Shown here in pieces: positions 41,165-53,959 of a stretch of 64,000 nt of DNA. Both the position numbers and the translations under genes were made by a program. The notes beneath the pieces are model-generated. The model did not search any database, was not told where the DNA came from, and saw only the letters and a list, made by a program, of their open reading frames with translations. The number at the start of each line of letters is the position of its first letter. Position 1 is the first letter of the stretch. This stretch comes from Chloroflexota bacterium (GTDB taxonomy: Bacteria; Chloroflexota; Dehalococcoidia; UBA2979), in the NCBI GenBank assembly GCA_947470025.1, contig CANIRU010000001.1:7331-71330 (forward strand), read 5' to 3'.

Positions 41165-44100
41165 CTATCGCGCTGGGATGGTGAGCACCTGGCCGTCGCG
41201 CACGGCGTAGGTCGGGCCGGCGATGTTGTTCGCAACCGCAATGACCTGCCAGTCGACACCGACTTTCACGCCGATGCCGGAAAGCGTGTCACCAGGCAGC
41301 ACCGTGTACGACTGCACCGCTCTCGGCGCTGCTGCGGCGGCCGGCGTCGCCAGTGCAGCAGCCGGCGTCGCGGCGACGGACTTCGTCAGCGTCACGGCGG
41401 TCGAGACAGACAGTCCGTTGGGGAAAGCTGCCGCGAACGTGTCACGAAGGAACGCCGGGCCGCCCACGACGAGGAGGCGATACACGCCGCCCAGGCCCTG
41501 GACCCAGACGCCCGTCGCACCCTGCGCCACCGCCGCCGACTCGAGCTGAGTGACCGTGCCGCCGTTGAAGACGGCGAGCGCGAGGCCGGTCGAACTAAAC
41601 GTCGCCGCGCCTCCGAATCCACCAGGCGCGGCCACAGGAGCCGGCGGTGCCTGGTTGATGCGCTGCACGGAGAAGAGCGTGAAGTGCGTGACACTCGCCG
41701 TAACCGACAGCGAACCGTCCGCATTGACCGTGACGACCGCGGGCGTCGTAACCCAACTGGTGCCGCTCCAGAAGGCGAGCGTGATGTTTCCCGCGGTGCT
41801 GCCCGCCGGGACCGAAGACGCCGGCACGGTGAACGTCAGCGACACGGGGACTGCGAGCGTCGTTACGGCGATGCCGGACGACATCGCGTTGATCTGGAAA
41901 CCGGAGACGAGTGATGCACCGGAGGGCGGCGGAGCAGCGTTCGCCAGCGCGAGGTCGTTCGTGACTGACGCGACCTGCACCGTGGTGCCCGCGGGCAGGG
42001 CGCCTGCCGGGACCGACACGGTCGCCGACACACCGGTCGAGGACGTCGTGCCGACGTTCACGCTGGACGTGCCCGTGGTCGCGCCGACGTTCACATTCGA
42101 CAGCGTGGCACCCACCACATCCGGACCAGCGGTGCCACCCGAGGGCGGGACGAACAAGCTGCCACCGCCGGTACCCGGGTCAGGTGTCACTATTGGCGCG
42201 CTGATCGTGAACGTCGGCGTAGCTACCACGCTTCCGGCGTTTCCAATCGCCGTCGCCGGAATCGTGACACTCACGGTCTCGTTCGCGCCAATGCTGTATG
42301 CCGCCGTCGCGGGTACCGTGACGGTAACGATGGTCGCGCTCGTGCGCACCACCGCGGCCACTGCAAGCGTGCCCCTGACGGCCGCGTTCCAGCCTGCCGC
42401 CTCGGCCCCGGCCGAAGTCAGGCCGTTGATGATGTTCTGGCGCTGAGCGTCGAAGGTCGCGCCCGCAGCGACCCACGTGCCGTTGGTCAGCGTCACTATG
42501 ATCGTGCCGCCGGAAGAGGTCAGCGTGGACGACGGCACGCCGCTGCTCAGCGAGCCACTGAGAGACGCTGACGTTGGTACAAGGCTGAACGGCGACGAGG
42601 CGACCACCCCCGATGCGGTGCCGATCGCCGTCGCGGGGATCGTCGCGGTGACGGTCTCGCTCGCTGTGATGTTGTAAGTCGCGATGGCCGGTAACGTAAT
42701 GGTCACGACCGTCGCGCTCGTTCGCACGACGTTGCCGACGACCAAGCCGGTCTTCACCGTCGCGTTCCAGCCGGCGGCCTCGGCAGCAGCCGAGGTCAGG
42801 CCGTTGATGATGTTCTGGCGCTGAGCGTCGAACGTCGCGCCCGCGGCCACCCAATTGCCGTTCGTCAACGTCAGGATGACGGTGCCGCCACCGGCGACGA
42901 CGCCGGCCTCAGTGTTCGCGCCGCCCTGGATGGTGCCCGTCACCGCCGCGGAAGCCGGGAGGACGTTGAAGGTCGGGCTGCCGACGATGGCAGACCCACT
43001 GACCAGTGCGGCACCGGGGACAGTGACCGTGATCGTCTCGCTCGAGGCGATGTCGTAGGTCGCGACGGCGGGCAGGGTGATCGTGATGACCGTCGCGCTC
43101 GTGCGGACCACGTTGCCGACGCTGAGGGCCGGCTTCACGGTCGCGTTCCATCCGGCCGCGGCCGCACCGCCTGAGGTCAGGCCGTTGATGATGGCCTGGC
43201 GCTGAGCGTCGAACGTGGCGCCTGCGGCGACCAGCGTGTCGTCGGCGATGGTGACGATGATCGTCCCGCCCCCGGCGACGAGTGCGCCCTCGCTGTTCGC
43301 GCCACCCTGGATCGTGCCCGTGATTGTCGCGGTCGCGCCGACGTTGAACGTGTTGCTCGTGGCAGCCGTCGCGCCCGCGCTGGTGAACCCCAGCGTGTAG
43401 CCGTTGCCGGCCACGCTCAGCGTCAGGTCGTTGAAAGTGGCGATGCCCGCCACCGCGGCGCGGGTCGTCGTGCCGGCGAGGACACTCGCAGACGGGTTCG
43501 TCCCGACGGCAGCGACCACGTTGGTGGTGTCTGAGGCGCGGAGATTGCCAAACGCATCACGGATCTGCACGGTCATCGCCGGGGCGATCGCCGCGAGCAC
43601 GGCGACGTTGCTGGGCTGCTGCGTGATGACCAGCGCGCTGACGGCGCCCGGGTTCACGGTGAACGACACCGAGGCGACGTGCGTCCCGGACAGGCCGACT
43701 TCCTGCGCCTTGATCGTCGTCGACTGCGCTCGGTCAAGCGTCGTCGCGAGCGTCGTGGTCGCGAGCCCAGCCGTGAACGACACCGAGGTCGTGAAGCTAT
43801 CCGTACCGGAGGTCGGGCCGTTCGAGGCGCCCGAGAGCGCGTACGTGAGCGTCTTCGCACCGGCATAGGCCGTCGAGCCGTTCGCACCGTCGGCGACATT
43901 GCCAAAGAGGTCGACCGCCGTGATCGTCGTGAGGTTGAAGGAGACGCCCGCCGTCTGCGGACCGGCAGGCGCGACGGTCACCAGGTGGTCAGCGGCCGCG
44001 TGCCGGATCGTGAACGCCGGCGAGGAGTCGACCGTGCGCGAGACGGAGTTCAGTGTCGCGGTGAACCGCAGCACCTTGTCTGTGCCGACCAGATCGATCT

Positions 44101-45256
44101 TGAGGGCATTCGCTGAGAAGTCGGCGACGCCCGCCACTGCGGCTTTCGCGGCGGTGCCGGTCAGCGTGCCGGCGCCCGTCTGCAGGCTGGCGGTGACAGT
44201 CGCGGTCGCGTCGGTGCCCGTGGTAACGAGGTTTCCGGAAGCATCAAGGATACGAATGACGGGCTGTTGGGCGAAGGCCACACCGGCGACAGAGGTCGCG
44301 GAGGGCTGCGTGAACACAGTCATCGACAGACCGGCGCCGTTAGCGACCGTCAGGGCTGCCGTGGCACCGGTGACGCCGTTCGCGGGAGCCGCCAGGTTGG
44401 CGCCGCCGGCGTTCTGTACTGTCGCGGTGATTGTCGGCGTTTCGGAGGCGTTGGTGAGGATGAAGCCGGTCACGTTAGTGATGCCCGACGTGAAGGTCTT
44501 CGCACCGGATTGGGCGGTGACCGTCGGCGCGGTCGCGTTCGGCGAGTTGGTCGCCGTCGTCGTGAAGGAGAGATCGACCGTGCCGCCGTTAACCGACGTC
44601 GCGGTGTTGTTGAACTGATCACGCGCGGTGACGCGGACCGCAAACGCGGTACCCGCCGTCAGGGACGTGGTCGGCGTGCCGCCGCCGTTGTTCGCGTTCA
44701 AGGACTGCGTCAGGAAGTTGGTCGGCGAGCCCGCGATCTCCGCGAGCGCGCCCGCATTGCCGGACGCGGTCGAGGTGCCGCTGAACGTCAGTTTGCCGGA
44801 AGCGAGCGGCGTGCCAGCGGTCGGCTGAACCGTGACCCCGGTGTACGTGAGCACGCATGCAGCAGTGGAAGCACTTGCAACGGTAAACGTAATCGTCGAG
44901 GCCGCAGGGGTCGCGGTGTTCAGCGTCGCTGCGCCCGCTCCGATGTCGATGTCGCAGCCACCACCTGTGGGGGTGAGGGTAATCGTGGCGGACGTGTCGA
45001 ACCGGAACCCGGACGGAGCGTTCAGAATAATCGAGCCCGTCCCGATGTCGGCAGCGCCCGCCTCAGTGAGGACGGGGCCGGTCAGCGACGTGAATGCGGC
45101 CCCTGCCGCACCCTGAGCCGTGTCAGCCAAAATCGCGCCGCCGCCCGTTGCCACGGTGATCGAGGGCGGTGCCGCGTGGACAACGCTGCTCCACAGAAGA
45201 AGCCCGGCCGCAGCAACCGAGAACCCGAAGACGGCCTTGGCCGCATTCGAGCGCAA
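41165..45256 (-). CDS. Giant (1363 aa) secreted LysM-domain surface protein with Ig-like (Big) domains and three ~127-aa tandem repeats
   Basis: Signal peptide MRSNAAKAVFGFSVAAAGLLLWSSVVHA. Big-like segments (VIRILDASGNLV..., VQIRDAFGNL...). C-terminal LysM YTVLPGDTLSGIGVKVGVDWQVIAVANNI...GQVLTIP. Confidence 0.8.
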   Translation of the reverse strand: MRSNAAKAVFGFSVAAAGLLLWSSVVHAAPPSITVATGGGAILADTAQGAAGAAFTSLTGPVLTEAGAADIGTGSIILNAPSGFRFDTSATITLTPTGGGCDIDIGAGAATLNTATPAASTITFTVASASTAACVLTYTGVTVQPTAGTPLASGKLTFSGTSTASGNAGALAEIAGSPTNFLTQSLNANNGGGTPTTSLTAGTAFAVRVTARDQFNNTATSVNGGTVDLSFTTTATNSPNATAPTVTAQSGAKTFTSGITNVTGFILTNASETPTITATVQNAGGANLAAPANGVTGATAALTVANGAGLSMTVFTQPSATSVAGVAFAQQPVIRILDASGNLVTTGTDATATVTASLQTGAGTLTGTAAKAAVAGVADFSANALKIDLVGTDKVLRFTATLNSVSRTVDSSPAFTIRHAAADHLVTVAPAGPQTAGVSFNLTTITAVDLFGNVADGANGSTAYAGAKTLTYALSGASNGPTSGTDSFTTSVSFTAGLATTTLATTLDRAQSTTIKAQEVGLSGTHVASVSFTVNPGAVSALVITQQPSNVAVLAAIAPAMTVQIRDAFGNLRASDTTNVVAAVGTNPSASVLAGTTTRAAVAGIATFNDLTLSVAGNGYTLGFTSAGATAATSNTFNVGATATITGTIQGGANSEGALVAGGGTIIVTIADDTLVAAGATFDAQRQAIINGLTSGGAAAAGWNATVKPALSVGNVVRTSATVITITLPAVATYDIASSETITVTVPGAALVSGSAIVGSPTFNVLPASAAVTGTIQGGANTEAGVVAGGGTVILTLTNGNWVAAGATFDAQRQNIINGLTSAAAEAAGWNATVKTGLVVGNVVRTSATVVTITLPAIATYNITASETVTATIPATAIGTASGVVASSPFSLVPTSASLSGSLSSGVPSSTLTSSGGTIIVTLTNGTWVAAGATFDAQRQNIINGLTSAGAEAAGWNAAVRGTLAVAAVVRTSATIVTVTVPATAAYSIGANETVSVTIPATAIGNAGSVVATPTFTISAPIVTPDPGTGGGSLFVPPSGGTAGPDVVGATLSNVNVGATTGTSSVNVGTTSSTGVSATVSVPAGALPAGTTVQVASVTNDLALANAAPPPSGASLVSGFQINAMSSGIAVTTLAVPVSLTFTVPASSVPAGSTAGNITLAFWSGTSWVTTPAVVTVNADGSLSVTASVTHFTLFSVQRINQAPPAPVAAPGGFGGAATFSSTGLALAVFNGGTVTQLESAAVAQGATGVWVQGLGGVYRLLVVGGPAFLRDTFAAAFPNGLSVSTAVTLTKSVAATPAAALATPAAAAAPRAVQSYTVLPGDTLSGIGVKVGVDWQVIAVANNIAGPTYAVRDGQVLTIPAR
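42197..43336 (-). repeat. Three in-frame tandem repeats (378-381 bp each) inside the giant surface-protein gene
   Basis: ggccgttgatgatgttctggcgctgagcgtcgaa recurs at 42421, 42799 and 43180. The protein units TGTIQGGAN(S/T)E...ATFDAQRQ(A/N)IINGLTS...GWNATVK... repeat three times. Confidence 0.85.
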
Positions 45257-45506: not shown

Positions 45507-46169
45507 ATGAACCTCGACCACAACGAGCTGAACCCGATGTGGGCACGCCGCGCCGCGCTCGCCGCCTCGCCGCACGCCGCCCATCGCGGTGACGCACCGC
45601 GCGAGGGCGTGGCGTGCTGCCGCATCGCGATAGCCTCATCCGAGGTGCGTGCACTCCTCGACGCCCAGCGCGGCGCGGCGTGCATCACTCAGGTGATCAC
45701 GTGGGACGCACCGCTGATGCTGCTCGCGGACGACGGCACGTTCGCCACGCAGGTCCGGACCGCGGGTGTTCCCGTCCTCGACCGCGGCGGTACGTACGCG
45801 GAGCGCCAGTGGGACGCACGTGAAGCGCTCGAGGAGGCCGCGCACCGCTTCTACGATCACCAGGAGACGTGGGGCGTGCGGGGCATGGTGACGCGCCAGC
45901 CTCGGACGACGGTTGCGATCGTCGAGGGTGCCCTGCAGGTGCATGCACTGCTATCCGCGCTCGTGCAGTTCGGCGCGTCGACCGAGGATGCCGGTGAGCA
46001 ACGTGGCGCGGGGCTGGTGGTGGACGGACGCGATCCGCTCGACCTGCGCATCTTCGTCGTCGACTCGATCGACGCCGACCGCGCGCTGATCGTCCACCCC
46101 GCAGGCGTCGAGGAGTACCGCCGGGCCGAGGTACTCGAACGCCTGCTCGGCGAGACCCGGCGCGGCTAG
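45507..46169 (+). CDS. Hypothetical protein
   Basis: A 220-aa ORF with very high GC3 and no recognised domain. Confidence 0.5.
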   Translation: MNLDHNELNPMWARRAALAASPHAAHRGDAPREGVACCRIAIASSEVRALLDAQRGAACITQVITWDAPLMLLADDGTFATQVRTAGVPVLDRGGTYAERQWDAREALEEAAHRFYDHQETWGVRGMVTRQPRTTVAIVEGALQVHALLSALVQFGASTEDAGEQRGAGLVVDGRDPLDLRIFVVDSIDADRALIVHPAGVEEYRRAEVLERLLGETRRG

Positions 46170-47092: not shown

Positions 47093-48256
47093 TTACCGCA
47101 CGAGGGTGACGGCGGTGTCGCTGGTGAACGACCGGATCTTCGCGATGAACGCGTCACGAATGAACGACGCGCCACCGATGATGAGCAACTGGTAGGCGCC
47201 AGATGCATCCTGCGCCCACACGCCCGTGGCATTCGCCGCGCGGGCGGCTGCCTCGAGCTGGGCGACGGTGCCGCCGCGGAACACGACGAGTGCCTGCCCG
47301 CTGGGCGCGTACACCACCGGGGCGGCGAAGTTGCCCGTCCCGCCGGTCGGCGGACTCACTGTGGTCGGGACCGACGTGGGTGTCGGAGCCGGCGCGGCGG
47401 TCGTGATGTTCACGGTTACCGTGTCGCTGACGATCTCGGGCGACCCGTCCGAGACGGCGACACGGAACTGGAGCGCCGACCCGGTCATCGGCGGTGCGAC
47501 AAAGCTCGTGCTGGCGCCGCCGTTCGAGGAGAGCGCGACCTGCGTGCCGGCTATCTGCGTCCAGTTGTAGGACAGGGCGGTGCTGTTCGGGCTGGACGCG
47601 GTCACGGTGAGGGTCACCTGCGCGTCCGGGCGGACGCTGAGGTCCGGGCCGGCATCGACGCTGAACATCTCGCGGTTCGTGGACAGGAATGCCTGACCCG
47701 CGTAGCCGTTCGAGGTCGTGATCGCCGGCAGTGCGATGTTCTCGAGCGTGTAGCTCCCGTCGAACGGCAGCGGACCGTTGTTGCTCAGTGCCAGGTGGAT
47801 GTGCGAGACACCGTTGTTGCCGGCCTCGCCCGGAGGGGCCACGGTGCCGAGACGCTGCCCGCGAATGATGTTCTTACCACGCAGCGTGGATGGGACGAGG
47901 ACGTGGCACATCATCACGGTGGTGCGTGCCGCGTCGCGGATGCTGATGCAACTCGTCGAGGCGTAGCCGACGGTACCGCTGATCGGCGCGAGCACGGCCG
48001 TGCCCGATGTCGCCGCGTCCGTGCGCTGCAGGTCGATCGCGTACGGGTCGTTGGAGTCCGCGACGGAGTGCGTCGCGGTGTTGTAGCCGGCGAGGATCGA
48101 CCACGCGGTCCCTTCCGGTGCCGGGAACGACAGACCGGCCGCTGCGGCCGCGGCGGGGCGTGCGAACAGCAGAGTAGTCGCCAGCGCGAGGAAGGTCGCC
48201 GCCACGGCGATCGTGTGGAGCTGTAAGAGACCGCGCCCGTGGCTTGATACGTGCAT
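47093..48256 (-). CDS. Secreted M23-family metallopeptidase with PKD domain and a C-terminal domain shared with the giant LysM protein
   Basis: Signal peptide. DPYAIDL...GTAVLAPISGTVGY...NNGVSHIHLAL (HxxxD / HxH-like). PKD segment LSYNWTQIAGTQV. The C-terminus ALVVFRGGTVAQLEAAARAANATGVWAQDASGAYQLLIIGGASFIRDAF is shared with the giant LysM protein. Confidence 0.7.
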   Translation of the reverse strand: MHVSSHGRGLLQLHTIAVAATFLALATTLLFARPAAAAAAGLSFPAPEGTAWSILAGYNTATHSVADSNDPYAIDLQRTDAATSGTAVLAPISGTVGYASTSCISIRDAARTTVMMCHVLVPSTLRGKNIIRGQRLGTVAPPGEAGNNGVSHIHLALSNNGPLPFDGSYTLENIALPAITTSNGYAGQAFLSTNREMFSVDAGPDLSVRPDAQVTLTVTASSPNSTALSYNWTQIAGTQVALSSNGGASTSFVAPPMTGSALQFRVAVSDGSPEIVSDTVTVNITTAAPAPTPTSVPTTVSPPTGGTGNFAAPVVYAPSGQALVVFRGGTVAQLEAAARAANATGVWAQDASGAYQLLIIGGASFIRDAFIAKIRSFTSDTAVTLVR

Positions 48257-51646: not shown

Positions 51647-51766
51647 ACCAACCGATGGGCGCCCCCGCAGCGGCTATGATCGGTGGAACCAGTGTCGCAC
51701 AGGCCAACGGGACGACCGTTGCGATCCCGAGTTGGTCTGGCCAGCGTTGGTTTGGCGGGAGTACAC

Positions 51767-53005
51767 GTGACCGCGGACGGCGACCTCATCGGGCGGCGCT
51801 ACCGGATCGGGCGGTTCGACCGCGCCGTCGGTTCGCTGCGCCGCGCGCCGGGCACGGACACGCGCCTCGACCGCCCCGTCCTGATCTGGATGAGCGAGAC
51901 GAGCGGCGCCGACGAGGATGCGCTGCTCGAGGTCGCGCGCACCGTCGGCCAATCGGCCTCCTCGACCTTCCTTCGCATCCTCGACGTCGCGTACGAGGAC
52001 GAGGGCGTCGCGGTGATCCTCGAGTCCGCCGGCGGTTCGCTGGCGGAGGCGGATGGCCTCGTGCCGATCGAGCTGCGCTCGGCGGCCCAACTGCTGGAAG
52101 CCGTCGACCGCGCCGCCGAGGACACCGAGCTCGTCCCGACGCGGGCCGCACGCATCGACATCTTCTCGGCGGGTGGCGAGGTGATCGTCGACCCGATCGC
52201 GCTGTTCCTTCCCGTCGTGCCCGGCGAGCGCGAGATCCCCGCGGACGTCCTCCGCGAACGCCTGGCCGCGTTGCTCATCGAGCACGCCGAGGATGGCACC
52301 ACGCTCGCGCAGGCGCTGACCGAGGATGCTGCGTCTGGCACACGCGTTGCCGCCCGCGCTCGGGGCGCCCTCGTCGGTGCGGGAGCTCGTGTCCCGTACG
52401 TCGACGACGAACCGACGGTCGCATTTACGGCGCCACCGCCACCGCCCGTATCCACCCCCACACCGCGCGCCACCCCCATGCCGATCTCGCCGCCGACGGA
52501 CGAGGGCGTCGAGGCGTTCGAGCCGGCGCCGGAGCCCGCGTCGACCGCCGAGGTCGTCGCGCCGAAGCTTCGTCGAGCCGCGCTGCCGTGGCGGGTGTTC
52601 GTGCCGCTGTATACCGGGCTCGCCGTCGTCGTCCTCGGCGCGCTGTTCTTCGCGCTGCGTTCGCCGGACGGGACGCCGACGGCCACGCCCACGACCGCGG
52701 CCGGCCAGCAGTCCGGCCCGCCCGCGGTCGCACCGGTCGCCGGACACGTCACGGTCGGCCTTGTGGCGACCGAGGACAGCGCCGTGCGCGTGACGGTCGA
52801 CGGCGTCGTGCAGTTCGACGGCACGCTGGCTTCCGGGCAGAAGCAGTCCTATGACGGCAAGCAGCGCATCGACGTGTGGACGGACAAGGGCAAGACGCTG
52901 AACATCGCGATCAACGGCAAGAACGTGGGTCCGTACTCGCCCGCGATGGGCCACGCCGACTGGAACCGCATCGACTTCTCGTTCTGGCCGGGCTGGACGC
53001 CATGA
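51767..53005 (+). CDS. Pseudokinase - TM - RodZ C-terminal-like (DUF4115-like) fusion protein
   Basis: A GTG at 51767 after ggcgggag; the ORF track starts at 51683. The N-terminus has kinase N-lobe-like RYRIGRFDRAVGSL...DTRLDRPVLIWM with no VAIK Lys and no HRD/DFG. TM: LPWRVFVPLYTGLAVVVLGALFFAL. The C-terminus VRVTVDGVVQFDGTLASGQKQSYDGKQRIDVWTDKGKTLNIAINGKNVG resembles the RodZ periplasmic domain. Confidence 0.5.
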   Translation: MTADGDLIGRRYRIGRFDRAVGSLRRAPGTDTRLDRPVLIWMSETSGADEDALLEVARTVGQSASSTFLRILDVAYEDEGVAVILESAGGSLAEADGLVPIELRSAAQLLEAVDRAAEDTELVPTRAARIDIFSAGGEVIVDPIALFLPVVPGEREIPADVLRERLAALLIEHAEDGTTLAQALTEDAASGTRVAARARGALVGAGARVPYVDDEPTVAFTAPPPPPVSTPTPRATPMPISPPTDEGVEAFEPAPEPASTAEVVAPKLRRAALPWRVFVPLYTGLAVVVLGALFFALRSPDGTPTATPTTAAGQQSGPPAVAPVAGHVTVGLVATEDSAVRVTVDGVVQFDGTLASGQKQSYDGKQRIDVWTDKGKTLNIAINGKNVGPYSPAMGHADWNRIDFSFWPGWTP

Positions 53006-53562
53006 TCGCCCTCGGCATCCTCGTCGAGGATCGCTACGTGCTCGGCGCGACGATCGCCATCGGCGGCGCGTGCACGATCACGCGCGCGCACGACACGCGG
53101 CTGGGCCGCGACATCGCGATCAAACGCGCACGCACGGCGGACGTGGCCTCGGCTGCCCGCCTGCGGATCGAAGCGTCAATGCTCGCGCGCTGCGCGCACC
53201 CAGGCGTCGTGTCGTGCCTCGACCTGATCGAGGACCTCGAAGGCGCGCCCGCACTCGTGCTGCAGCTTGTCGAGGGCGCCAACCTCGCGCAGCACGCCGC
53301 ACGCGGCCCGATCGACGAGCCGGTCGTGCGTACCTGGATCGACGAGGTCACGAGCACAGTCGAGCACCTGCACGCGCGAGGCGTCGTGCACGGCGACCTC
53401 AAGCCGGCGAACGTGATGATCACCACCAGCGGCTGCGCGATCCTCGTCGACTTCGACCGCGCCCGCGACGCCTCGCCCGAGGCGATCGAGCACGAGCGGC
53501 GCGCGCTGGACGCGCTGCGATCCTGGCTCCTCGGACGGTTCGAGGCGCCTGCCGCCGACTAG
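53002..53562 (+). CDS. Short (186 aa) non-RD Ser/Thr protein-kinase-like protein lacking the C-lobe
   Basis: ATGA overlap with the upstream gene. IAIKRA (VAIK), HGDLKPANV (catalytic loop), ILVDFD (DFG-like). It stops about 25 aa later, and the cupin gene begins 8 bp downstream on the other strand. Confidence 0.6.
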   Translation: MIALGILVEDRYVLGATIAIGGACTITRAHDTRLGRDIAIKRARTADVASAARLRIEASMLARCAHPGVVSCLDLIEDLEGAPALVLQLVEGANLAQHAARGPIDEPVVRTWIDEVTSTVEHLHARGVVHGDLKPANVMITTSGCAILVDFDRARDASPEAIEHERRALDALRSWLLGRFEAPAAD

Positions 53563-53569
53563 TCGGCCG

Positions 53570-53959
53570 CTACTCCCCGAGGTTCACGACAATGTTGTCG
53601 GGCGTGCGCACCAGCACGGCCTCGTACAGTTCGTCGTACGGGTTCTCCTCGATGTGGTGGATGTGCGGCGGAACCCAGATGAAGTCGCCGGGCTCCGCCT
53701 CCACGAACTCCGTGAAGCCCTCGCCGAAGTAGACGCGGAGGCGCCCCTTCAGCACGTACACGCCGGTCTCCGCTTCGCCGTGGTGGTGCGGCGGGCCCTT
53801 CTCGTTGGGCGCGGCGGTGACGTAGCCCATCCACAACCTCGACGCGCCGACGGTGTCCGGCGTAACGCCGGGGAAGCGCTCCATGCCCCGCGTCTGGATC
53901 GTCGTGTCTGAGGCTTGCCTTCGCACGATGCGCGGGCGGTCTTGAGGTGGCGTGGTCAT
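53570..53959 (-). CDS. Cupin-domain protein
   Basis: PHHHGEAETGVYVLKGRLRVYFGEG...GDFIWVPPHIHHIEEN. The rest of listed ORF 53570..54898 is antisense to the AKR gene. Confidence 0.75.
   Translation of the reverse strand: MTTPPQDRPRIVRRQASDTTIQTRGMERFPGVTPDTVGASRLWMGYVTAAPNEKGPPHHHGEAETGVYVLKGRLRVYFGEGFTEFVEAEPGDFIWVPPHIHHIEENPYDELYEAVLVRTPDNIVVNLGE

Follow-up and report, generated by a model that had tools for sequence, protein, structure and literature searches.

We have analysed a 64 kb stretch of DNA (the window; contig CANIRU010000001.1, about 70% guanine plus cytosine, GC) from an uncultured, high-GC Dehalococcoidia bacterium, and we read a four-gene locus within it as a compact MviN-like Ser/Thr phospho-switch on a peptidoglycan synthase. 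We put the probability of this reading at roughly one half. The locus consists of two gene pairs that diverge from each other, the genes of each pair being coupled by an ATGA overlap between the stop codon of the first gene and the start codon of the second. On the minus strand, the gene for a membrane-anchored forkhead-associated (FHA) protein precedes that for a fusion of a SEDS (shape, elongation, division and sporulation) glycosyltransferase with a class B penicillin-binding protein (SEDS-bPBP). On the plus strand, the gene for protein 1, a pseudokinase joined through a transmembrane (TM) helix to a RodZ_C domain, precedes that for protein 2, a small Hanks-type kinase. An earlier note, made from the letters of this DNA, had pointed out the divergence of the two pairs; it is present, and the four-gene arrangement recurs in the related loci L001, L002, L004–L007, L011, L012, L016 and L017. 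Comparison of related genomes showed it to be kept in every relative with enough flanking DNA. All named relatives of the studied proteins come from Dehalococcoidia or Chloroflexi metagenome-assembled genomes (MAGs), and every related locus that was compared has a GC content of 67–75%. Coordinates are collected in Table 1.

The N-terminal domain of protein 1 has a kinase fold from which all catalytic residues have been lost. Trp takes the place of the β3 lysine (W41), Arg that of the catalytic aspartate (R126) and D142-P that of DFG; there is no αC glutamate, and the activation segment is deleted, with helices following directly after D142-P. The segments IGRFDRAVGSL and DTRLDRPVLIWM, on which a pseudokinase had been called in the earlier note, are both present, and the call is borne out by the reading of the motifs, by a profile match to Rv3910 and by an AlphaFold2 (AF2) model. 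Pfam gives no Pkinase match in protein 1. A profile search of the PDB with the N-domain family returned only the Rv3910 pseudokinase as a significant match (E = 7e-5; PknA, E = 0.14). Alignments of protein 1 are shallow; the AF2 model, built with 15 homologues, is confident over amino acids (aa) 10–188 (predicted local distance difference test score, pLDDT, about 87–93), and its secondary-structure elements follow the same order as those of protein 2. The full length of 412 aa is also given by gene calls on independent contigs.

Searching 1.84 billion representative sequences with the N-domain profile yielded about 15 clusters with the architecture of protein 1, and all of those checked carry RodZ_C. 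Next in similarity come pseudokinases that have MurJ or F5/8-type-C (discoidin) domains as fusion partners. These MviN-type pseudokinases score 47–63 bits against the profile, compared with 20 bits for the neighbouring kinase and 5–9 bits for canonical kinases. Since the profile favours MviN-type pseudokinases over the kinase next door, we assign the domain to an old MviN/ActPs3-related lineage; a recent tandem duplication as its origin was rejected on the same scores. In ActPs3 pseudokinases all motifs are degraded, the activation loop carries a hallmark deletion, a TM helix follows the domain and the N-lobes dimerize back to back (PMC12599244, a 2025 review). The N-domain of protein 1 has the Rv3910-related fold, the degraded motifs, the activation-loop deletion, the C-terminal TM helix and the interface residues. 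We call it ActPs3-like rather than a member of the group because its taxonomy (Chloroflexota) and its ectodomain differ from those of the described members. The reduced kinases of the related loci score 16–41 bits against the pseudokinase profile, as against 5–9 bits for the canonical kinases of related loci or for PknB; this excess could come from similar composition, from deletions common to both or from co-adaptation of the partners.

The N-lobes of proteins 1 and 2 had been described as paralogous. At the level of the fold or superfamily this is correct: BLASTP aligns them with 27% identity over 155 aa (E = 4e-4) and a family-to-family comparison with hhalign gives a probability of 88.5% (E = 2.7e-6, aa 1–117). 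They are not close copies, however, the pseudokinase profile lying nearer to MviN-type domains by the scores given above. In PknB the back-to-back N-lobe interface is formed by R10, L33 and D76, and L33D and D76A are the mutations commonly used to disrupt it (PMC13434768); the equivalents in MviN are L750 and D793 (PMC12599244). Alignment puts R11, L34 and D74 of protein 2 and R11, L34 and D73 of protein 1 at these positions. Conservation of these residues is complete or reaches at least 90% in both families; in that of protein 1, L34 and D73 never vary and R11 is kept in at least 90% of the members. Judged by the alignment, the DTRLxR motif that the two proteins have in common is the PknB-type N-lobe dimer interface.

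The pseudokinase domain of protein 1 is followed by a linker, aa 189–272, which AF2 predicts to be disordered. T217 is invariant in a 15-sequence alignment in which the rest of the linker cannot be aligned. A motif of the form [DE]x(1-3)Txx[LFM] is present in 26 of the 27 family sequences, nearly always once, and this includes members with only about 30% domain identity; the 27th sequence is an unparsed fragment. In shuffled linkers at least one match turns up by chance at a rate of about 0.16 per sequence, which is not a formal probability because the family sequences are related to one another. In the motif, acidic residues stand at positions −3 to −6, Pro at −1 and in many cases at +2, and a hydrophobic residue at +3. 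FHA domains prefer a hydrophobic residue at pT+3. The motif also agrees with the one measured for PknA-dependent phosphosites of M. tuberculosis (PMC7164672). As far as the residues themselves can indicate, it fits both a substrate site for a Hanks-type kinase and a docking site for an FHA domain.

Protein 2 is a PknB-type kinase by sequence, with no TM helix or sensor domain. It matches the NCBIfam model PknB_PASTA_kin with E = 7.7e-30, and its best sequence matches in the PDB are the kinase domains of PknB and PknA (E = 1e-16); the Pfam Pkinase match (E = 7.5e-23) covers only positions 3–151 of the 263 in the profile. Weak NCBIfam matches to Bud32 and RIO reflect the shared core only. The N-lobe set of Hanks kinases is complete (Gly-rich loop, G21-G22; β3 lysine, K41; αC glutamate, E57), the catalytic loop reads H130-G-D132-L-K134-P-A-N137 and the DFG position reads D150-F-D152. 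The variants are the change of R to G in the catalytic loop, which makes this a non-RD kinase, and that of DFG to DFD. The IAIK, HGDLKPANV and VDFD motifs listed in the earlier note are all found in the translation, as is the overlap of the start with the stop codon of protein 1 (ATGA, 53002–53005); the stop codon of protein 2 itself is TAG at 53560–53562. The AF2 model, built with 42 homologues, has a pLDDT of 95.1 and a predicted template modelling score (pTM) of 0.89.

Alignment of protein 2 with PknB, two canonical relatives and intermediate forms shows that the whole N-lobe, αD, αE, the catalytic loop, β7–β8, DFD and αF (aa 159–177) are retained, and that the activation segment, the P+1 loop, APE, αG, αH and αI are missing. 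The kinase had been described as lacking the C-lobe, which is right for the activation segment, APE and αG–αI; the catalytic part of the C-lobe is kept and we therefore call the protein C-lobe-reduced. It ends 34 aa after DFD and not about 25 aa after it, as had been estimated. The truncation is real, as had been argued from the neighbouring gene. The identical 186 aa protein is present on nine contigs from different samples and assemblies, the closest orthologue (locus L008; 74% identity) is also 186 aa long and the members of another sequence group, about 50% identical, are 184–190 aa long. With the conserved convergent cupin gene, these observations rule out a frameshift or an assembly artefact. 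Locus L008 (CAMDAY010000034.1) is labelled Dehalococcoides mccartyi, which is a low-GC, wall-less organism; the locus has 70% GC and encodes peptidoglycan synthases, and the label looks wrong.

Across 12 members of the short-kinase family G21, G22, K41, E57, H130, D132, K134 and D150 are invariant. The ratio of nonsynonymous to synonymous substitution rates (dN/dS) against the closest orthologue is 0.35 for protein 2 and 0.18 for protein 1, from which we conclude that protein 2 is under purifying selection, although weaker than that on its partner.

A protein of this shape might not be a kinase in function. Small kinase-fold proteins without substrate-binding subdomains, such as Bud32 and RIO, act mainly as ATPases, and protein 2 could similarly bind or hydrolyse ATP as a switch that binds the pseudokinase and changes the state of the scaffold, with a different, full-length Hanks kinase for T217, if T217 is phosphorylated, encoded elsewhere in the genome. 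The loss of the activation segment, P+1 loop, APE and αG–αI together with the retention of the nucleotide- and metal-binding residues would suit such a role, as would the changes across the family from Asn137 to His and from DFG to DFD or DLD. ATP binding alone would not, however, need the catalytic base D132 or the Ser/Thr-kinase-specific K134, which are both invariant. The profile matches place the protein with PknB and not in the Bud32/RIO family, and its co-translated partner carries a conserved kinase-type substrate motif. We regard an ATP switch as possible but doubtful.

The remainder of protein 1 is bitopic. Positive residues flank the TM helix on its N-terminal side, which would leave the pseudokinase in the cytoplasm and RodZ_C outside. 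A TM helix followed by a RodZ-like C-terminal domain had been proposed in the earlier note, and both are supported: the Pfam RodZ_C match (aa 332–391, E = 1.1e-8) has 35.3 bits, the cutoff being 23.9, and AF2 gives a helix and then a β domain with strands in aa 328–390 (pLDDT about 80). The domain continues into a conserved C-terminal extension, YSPAMGHxDWNRIDFxFWPGW, and the two together are the best-conserved part of the family. No helix–turn–helix (HTH) domain is found in protein 1 with Pfam or NCBIfam, and the globular cytoplasmic part is wholly kinase fold.

The minus-strand pair supplies a synthase and a putative reader of phosphothreonine. The SEDS-bPBP fusion matches FTSW_RODA_SPOVE (E = 1.6e-62) and Transpeptidase (E = 1.4e-57) in Pfam, with a weak match to PBP_dimer_2. 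In NCBIfam it scores 261 bits with pbp2_mrdA, 211 bits with ftsW and 160 bits with rodA, all under the respective cutoffs; as ftsW outscores rodA, the label 'RodA' for the SEDS part is not established. Its ATG overlaps the stop codon of the FHA gene (ATGA), as read directly from the sequence. The fusion, of 870–912 aa, is found in the window and in the closer relatives; in more distant loci of the family SEDS and the class B PBP are encoded by separate adjacent genes (L016:3868-6554 and L017:1489-3713). The FHA protein has an N-terminal TM anchor at about aa 10–35 and a cytoplasmic FHA domain at aa 110–173, in which the pThr-binding residues are intact (G112-R113, S127/S128-x-H130 and N149-G150). 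It matches NCBIfam FhaB_Rv0019c over positions 3–157 of 158 (E = 2.6e-27) with 95.8 bits, the equivalog cutoff being 125.

In some relatives the anchor of the FHA protein and the RodZ_C domain are found in one chain. Among proteins P0076–P0100 there are 23 related two-TM proteins of 226–272 aa, in which an FhaB-type anchor at the N-terminus is joined through a cytoplasmic linker and a second TM helix to RodZ_C. Their anchor, WPxxLLxLRxGxxxxLYLFL..AFRALRAELRA, is 39–59% identical to aa 5–48 of the FHA protein of the window (E down to 3e-14). The topology of the fusions agrees with that of the separate proteins: the anchor runs N-out/C-in and the second TM helix then runs from inside to outside. 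Two of the genes (L014:7001-7720 and L015:6527-7306) are divergent from SEDS-bPBP, and the FHA domain, the pseudokinase and the kinase are all absent from these two loci. The divergent neighbour of SEDS-bPBP bears RodZ_C in every related locus, whichever cytoplasmic part goes with it.

This constant position, with the RodZ_C score above the Pfam threshold and the RodZ-like bitopic topology, speaks for another explanation, in which protein 1 is a RodZ orthologue whose MreB-binding HTH has been swapped for a pseudokinase and which organizes the elongasome, with kinase signalling replacing the coupling to MreB. In the species studied the essential parts of RodZ are the HTH and the TM helix, and DUF4115 is dispensable in several of them (PMC9804626); here the HTH is absent. 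The cytoplasmic domain groups with MviN-type pseudokinases that bear other ectodomains, and an ectodomain gained by a pseudokinase scaffold through domain shuffling is no less likely. Because the HTH is absent we do not call protein 1 a RodZ and do not expect it to bind MreB. The earlier description of a RodZ with a replaced HTH therefore goes further than the protein allows: only the RodZ_C ectodomain is common to the two, and the cytoplasmic part is of the MviN/ActPs3 type. We think orthology with RodZ unlikely, although the ectodomain by itself may derive from a RodZ.

The kinase of the related loci is always encoded 3′ of the pseudokinase-RodZ_C gene, usually overlapping it, and is without a TM helix or sensor domain throughout. 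In length it changes by steps (Table 1). Canonical kinases with APE are found at one end; in the next group αG–αH are deleted, the activation loop is short and APE is retained; the following group ends just past αF; and in the group that includes protein 2 the APE stretch is deleted too. C-terminal trimming recurs in a distant branch (L017), and in a neighbour-joining tree the kinases of up to 190 aa fall into two separate groups, which may have arisen independently; the deep nodes of the tree have less than 60% bootstrap support. Locus L016 has a canonical kinase gene (L016:9480-10379, on a 1.87 Mb contig; HRD, DFG and APE) with the N-lobe and the part from HRD onwards in different frames; the frameshift may stem from an indel in the assembly, or the gene may be a true pseudogene. 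The only phosphatase across the loci is a PP2C with PG_binding_4 directly upstream of a pseudokinase-RodZ_C gene (L013:2016-3506).

That protein 2 is in decay and has kept little or no function, in a lineage that is losing a phospho-signalling layer without which the module works, is quite improbable: the stepwise shortening from 286–305 to 235–255, 208–217 and 184–190 aa and then to none, the repeated trimming in L017, a dN/dS above that of the partner, the absence from the window of the FhaA present in L011 and L016, and the relatives with only the FhaB-anchor-RodZ_C fusion beside SEDS-bPBP would all fit decay, but the frame is intact and identical on nine contigs, the length is held in the 74%-identity orthologue and at about 50% identity, a dN/dS of 0.35 is well under 1, the ATGA coupling is preserved and the catalytic residues are all invariant, while the pseudokinase next door has lost every one of them.

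In the reading that we prefer, an MviN-like phospho-switch, protein 1 would be a bitopic membrane scaffold and sensor and protein 2 its soluble catalytic subunit, made in a fixed ratio to it through the ATGA coupling. The N-lobes of protein 2 and the pseudokinase would meet back to back as in PknB, which would place protein 2 at the membrane, keep its αC helix in the active position and bring the tethered linker within its reach; there it would phosphorylate T217. Because the activation segment, the P+1 loop and αG have been lost, protein 2 would be limited to T217 as a substrate held within the complex. Once phosphorylated, T217 would be bound by the FHA domain of the membrane-anchored FhaB-like protein, whose gene is ATGA-coupled to that of SEDS-bPBP, and the scaffold with its RodZ_C domain would be linked to the synthase in a phosphorylation-dependent way that tunes wall synthesis. 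The natural anchor-RodZ_C fusions may represent a hard-wired form of the bridge that phosphorylation would make conditional here. There is a precedent in mycobacteria, where PknB phosphorylates Thr947 of MviN, the FHA domain of FhaA is recruited and peptidoglycan synthesis is regulated (PMC12599244). The suggestion in the earlier note of a morphogenetic signalling module is a reasonable inference.

More tentatively, the 186 aa protein may be a working kinase as one half of an obligate heterodimer, in which the pseudokinase supplies anchoring, allosteric activation and a tethered threonine, and the graded series may record a stepwise paring down towards the hard-wired fusion. If the 186 aa protein works, we know of no smaller functional catalytic core of the Hanks or eukaryotic protein kinase (ePK) type.

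Several points weigh against a phospho-switch. None of the elements by which a kinase normally binds its peptide substrate is left in protein 2; in most family members His stands in place of the Mg-binding Asn137, and the DFG position reads DFD or DLD. The kinase evolves faster than its partner (74% as against 85% identity to the closest orthologue), and a graded series that ends in complete loss is also the trace of a decaying gene. The confidence of AF2 in the lone αF helix may be a fold prior rather than a sign of stability. Neither a PP2C phosphatase, FhaA nor a second kinase is encoded in the 64 kb window, and a kinase encoded outside it could phosphorylate T217. The function of RodZ_C has not been established in any organism, and the domain is dispensable in several (PMC9804626).

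All of the parts of the locus are already known: the Hanks kinase, the MviN-type pseudokinase, FhaB, SEDS-bPBP and RodZ_C. What is new is their combination, the phylum and the degree of reduction of the kinase. The closest known system is MviN (Rv3910)/PknB/FhaA of M. tuberculosis, with which the locus shares a kinase-fold domain with degraded catalytic motifs and a deleted activation loop, a TM helix C-terminal to it followed by an extracytoplasmic domain, conserved N-lobe dimer residues, a conserved threonine in the tail, an FHA-domain partner and a link to peptidoglycan synthesis. Unlike MviN, protein 1 is not fused to MurJ, and it carries RodZ_C where MviN has a carbohydrate-binding (discoidin-like) ectodomain; in place of FhaA, an FhaB-like FHA protein is encoded next to it, whose gene is coupled to that of the SEDS-bPBP fusion. 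ActPs3 has been described as mainly actinobacterial, and the pseudokinase extension of MviN has been reported only in arabinogalactan-containing bacteria (actinobacteria), whereas protein 1 comes from Chloroflexota (Dehalococcoidia MAGs). PknB is a PASTA receptor kinase; protein 2 is soluble and truncated and is encoded immediately downstream of the pseudokinase.

The locus also resembles the actinobacterial fhaA-fhaB-pstP-rodA-pbpA-pknA-pknB cluster, which likewise combines FhaB, SEDS, class B PBP and Hanks-type kinase genes. Distant relatives come nearer to that cluster, with FhaA (L011 and L016), separate rodA and pbpA (L016 and L017) and an adjacent PP2C (L013). The window differs from it in having no PstP or FhaA, in its two divergent ATGA-coupled pairs and in the fusion of SEDS to bPBP; as for the kinases, one is a pseudokinase with RodZ_C in place of PASTA and the other, with a reduced C-lobe, lacks both TM helix and ectodomain. 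RodZ (HTH_25-TM-RodZ_C/DUF4115) is similar to protein 1 in being bitopic, with an extracytoplasmic RodZ_C, and in being tied genomically to SEDS-bPBP, but protein 1 has a pseudokinase as its cytoplasmic domain and no HTH. Bud32/PRPK and RIO are, like protein 2, small, with the nucleotide-binding and catalytic core kept and the activation segment and substrate-binding subdomains missing; they are separate ancient families with insertions of their own, whereas protein 2 is a PknB-type Hanks kinase that has shrunk by recent stepwise deletions, which can be followed among its close relatives. The eukaryotic pseudokinase–kinase pairs (STRAD-LKB1, JAK JH2-JH1 and HER3-EGFR) have no specific homology to the pair described here, for which the proposed interface is the bacterial PknB type. 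We found no published pseudokinase-RodZ_C protein, DUF4115-kinase fusion or Chloroflexota cluster of this kind, although coverage of the literature was incomplete and their absence is not proven by it.

Table 1. Features of the four-gene locus (positions in the window) and of the kinases in the related loci.
Feature	Location	Strand	Basis or remarks
SEDS-bPBP fusion (FtsW/RodA-family glycosyltransferase + PBP2/PbpA-type transpeptidase), 912 aa	48342..51080	−	Pfam
FhaB/FipA-like FHA protein, 189 aa	51077..51646	−	Pfam FHA, E = 4.6e-16
Intergenic region between the divergent pairs	51647..51766		120 bp
Protein 1, pseudokinase-TM-RodZ_C, 412 aa	51767..53005	+	GTG start at 51767, GGGAG upstream
Pseudokinase domain, about aa 1–190 of protein 1	51767..52336	+	Degraded kinase motifs
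Linker motif D213-D-E-P-T217-V-A-F220, candidate phosphosite/FHA docking site	52403..52426	+	Conservation
TM helix, aa 278–297 of protein 1	52598..52657	+	AF2 helix; hydropathy maximum at about aa 277
RodZ_C (DUF4115) β domain and C-terminal extension	52748..53005	+	Pfam, AF2
Protein 2, soluble C-lobe-reduced non-RD Hanks-type kinase, 186 aa	53002..53562	+	Pfam Pkinase
Canonical kinase, 286 and 305 aa	L011, L012		DFG/DLG and APE; HRD in L011, already HGD in L012; FhaA in L011
Canonical kinase split by a frameshift	L016		FhaA also present
Kinase, 235–255 aa	P0005, P0008, P0010, P0011, P0013		αG–αH deleted, activation loop short, APE retained
Kinase, 208–217 aa	P0006, P0007, P0012, L017		End just past αF; in L017 HLD, K to T
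Kinase, 184–190 aa	Window, P0002, P0004, P0009, L010		APE stretch deleted too

The genes that flank the four-gene locus are metabolic. A cupin gene lies 3′ of protein 2 on the opposite strand, adjoining the stop codon of the kinase as the earlier note had stated; it is the end of the gene that lies there and not its beginning, the two genes being convergent with a 7 nt gap and the cupin stop codon starting at 53570. No sigma-70-like site was found in the intergenic region of the divergent pairs, a negative of little weight in this phylum, and there is no Rfam match between 47 and 55 kb. A tblastn search showed no other kinase, PP2C, FHA or RodZ_C gene within the window.

Just downstream of SEDS-bPBP a secreted protein is encoded (47093..48256, minus strand), for which PKD-like and faint M23 peptidase Pfam matches are given on an identical contig. 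It has a C-terminal module of about 73 aa in common with a repetitive surface protein of 1363 aa (41165..45256, minus strand), with 51% identity and E = 5e-18; the latter apparently has a LysM-like segment at its end. A similar module occurs in one frame downstream of the L009 kinase gene, about where a CAP-domain gene was called. The module is lineage-specific. An open reading frame of 220 aa (45507..46169, plus strand) has no Pfam match on record and is kept on the identical contig L005.

Control of the cell wall by a pseudokinase, an FHA protein and a Hanks kinase has so far been demonstrated only in mycobacteria. The locus described here would extend it to Chloroflexota, and the control would act on a SEDS-bPBP synthase rather than on a lipid II flippase. 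Protein 2 would be a natural minimal kinase, with its catalytic residues under selection and all of the canonical substrate-binding elements gone; intermediates exist for comparison, and what the kinase fold needs for phosphotransfer could be tested directly with a tethered substrate. RodZ_C/DUF4115 is widespread, and its constant partnership with SEDS-bPBP in these loci, despite the varied cytoplasmic wiring, may give a handle on its role. The organisms are uncultured, although all of the proteins are small and heterologous study is feasible.

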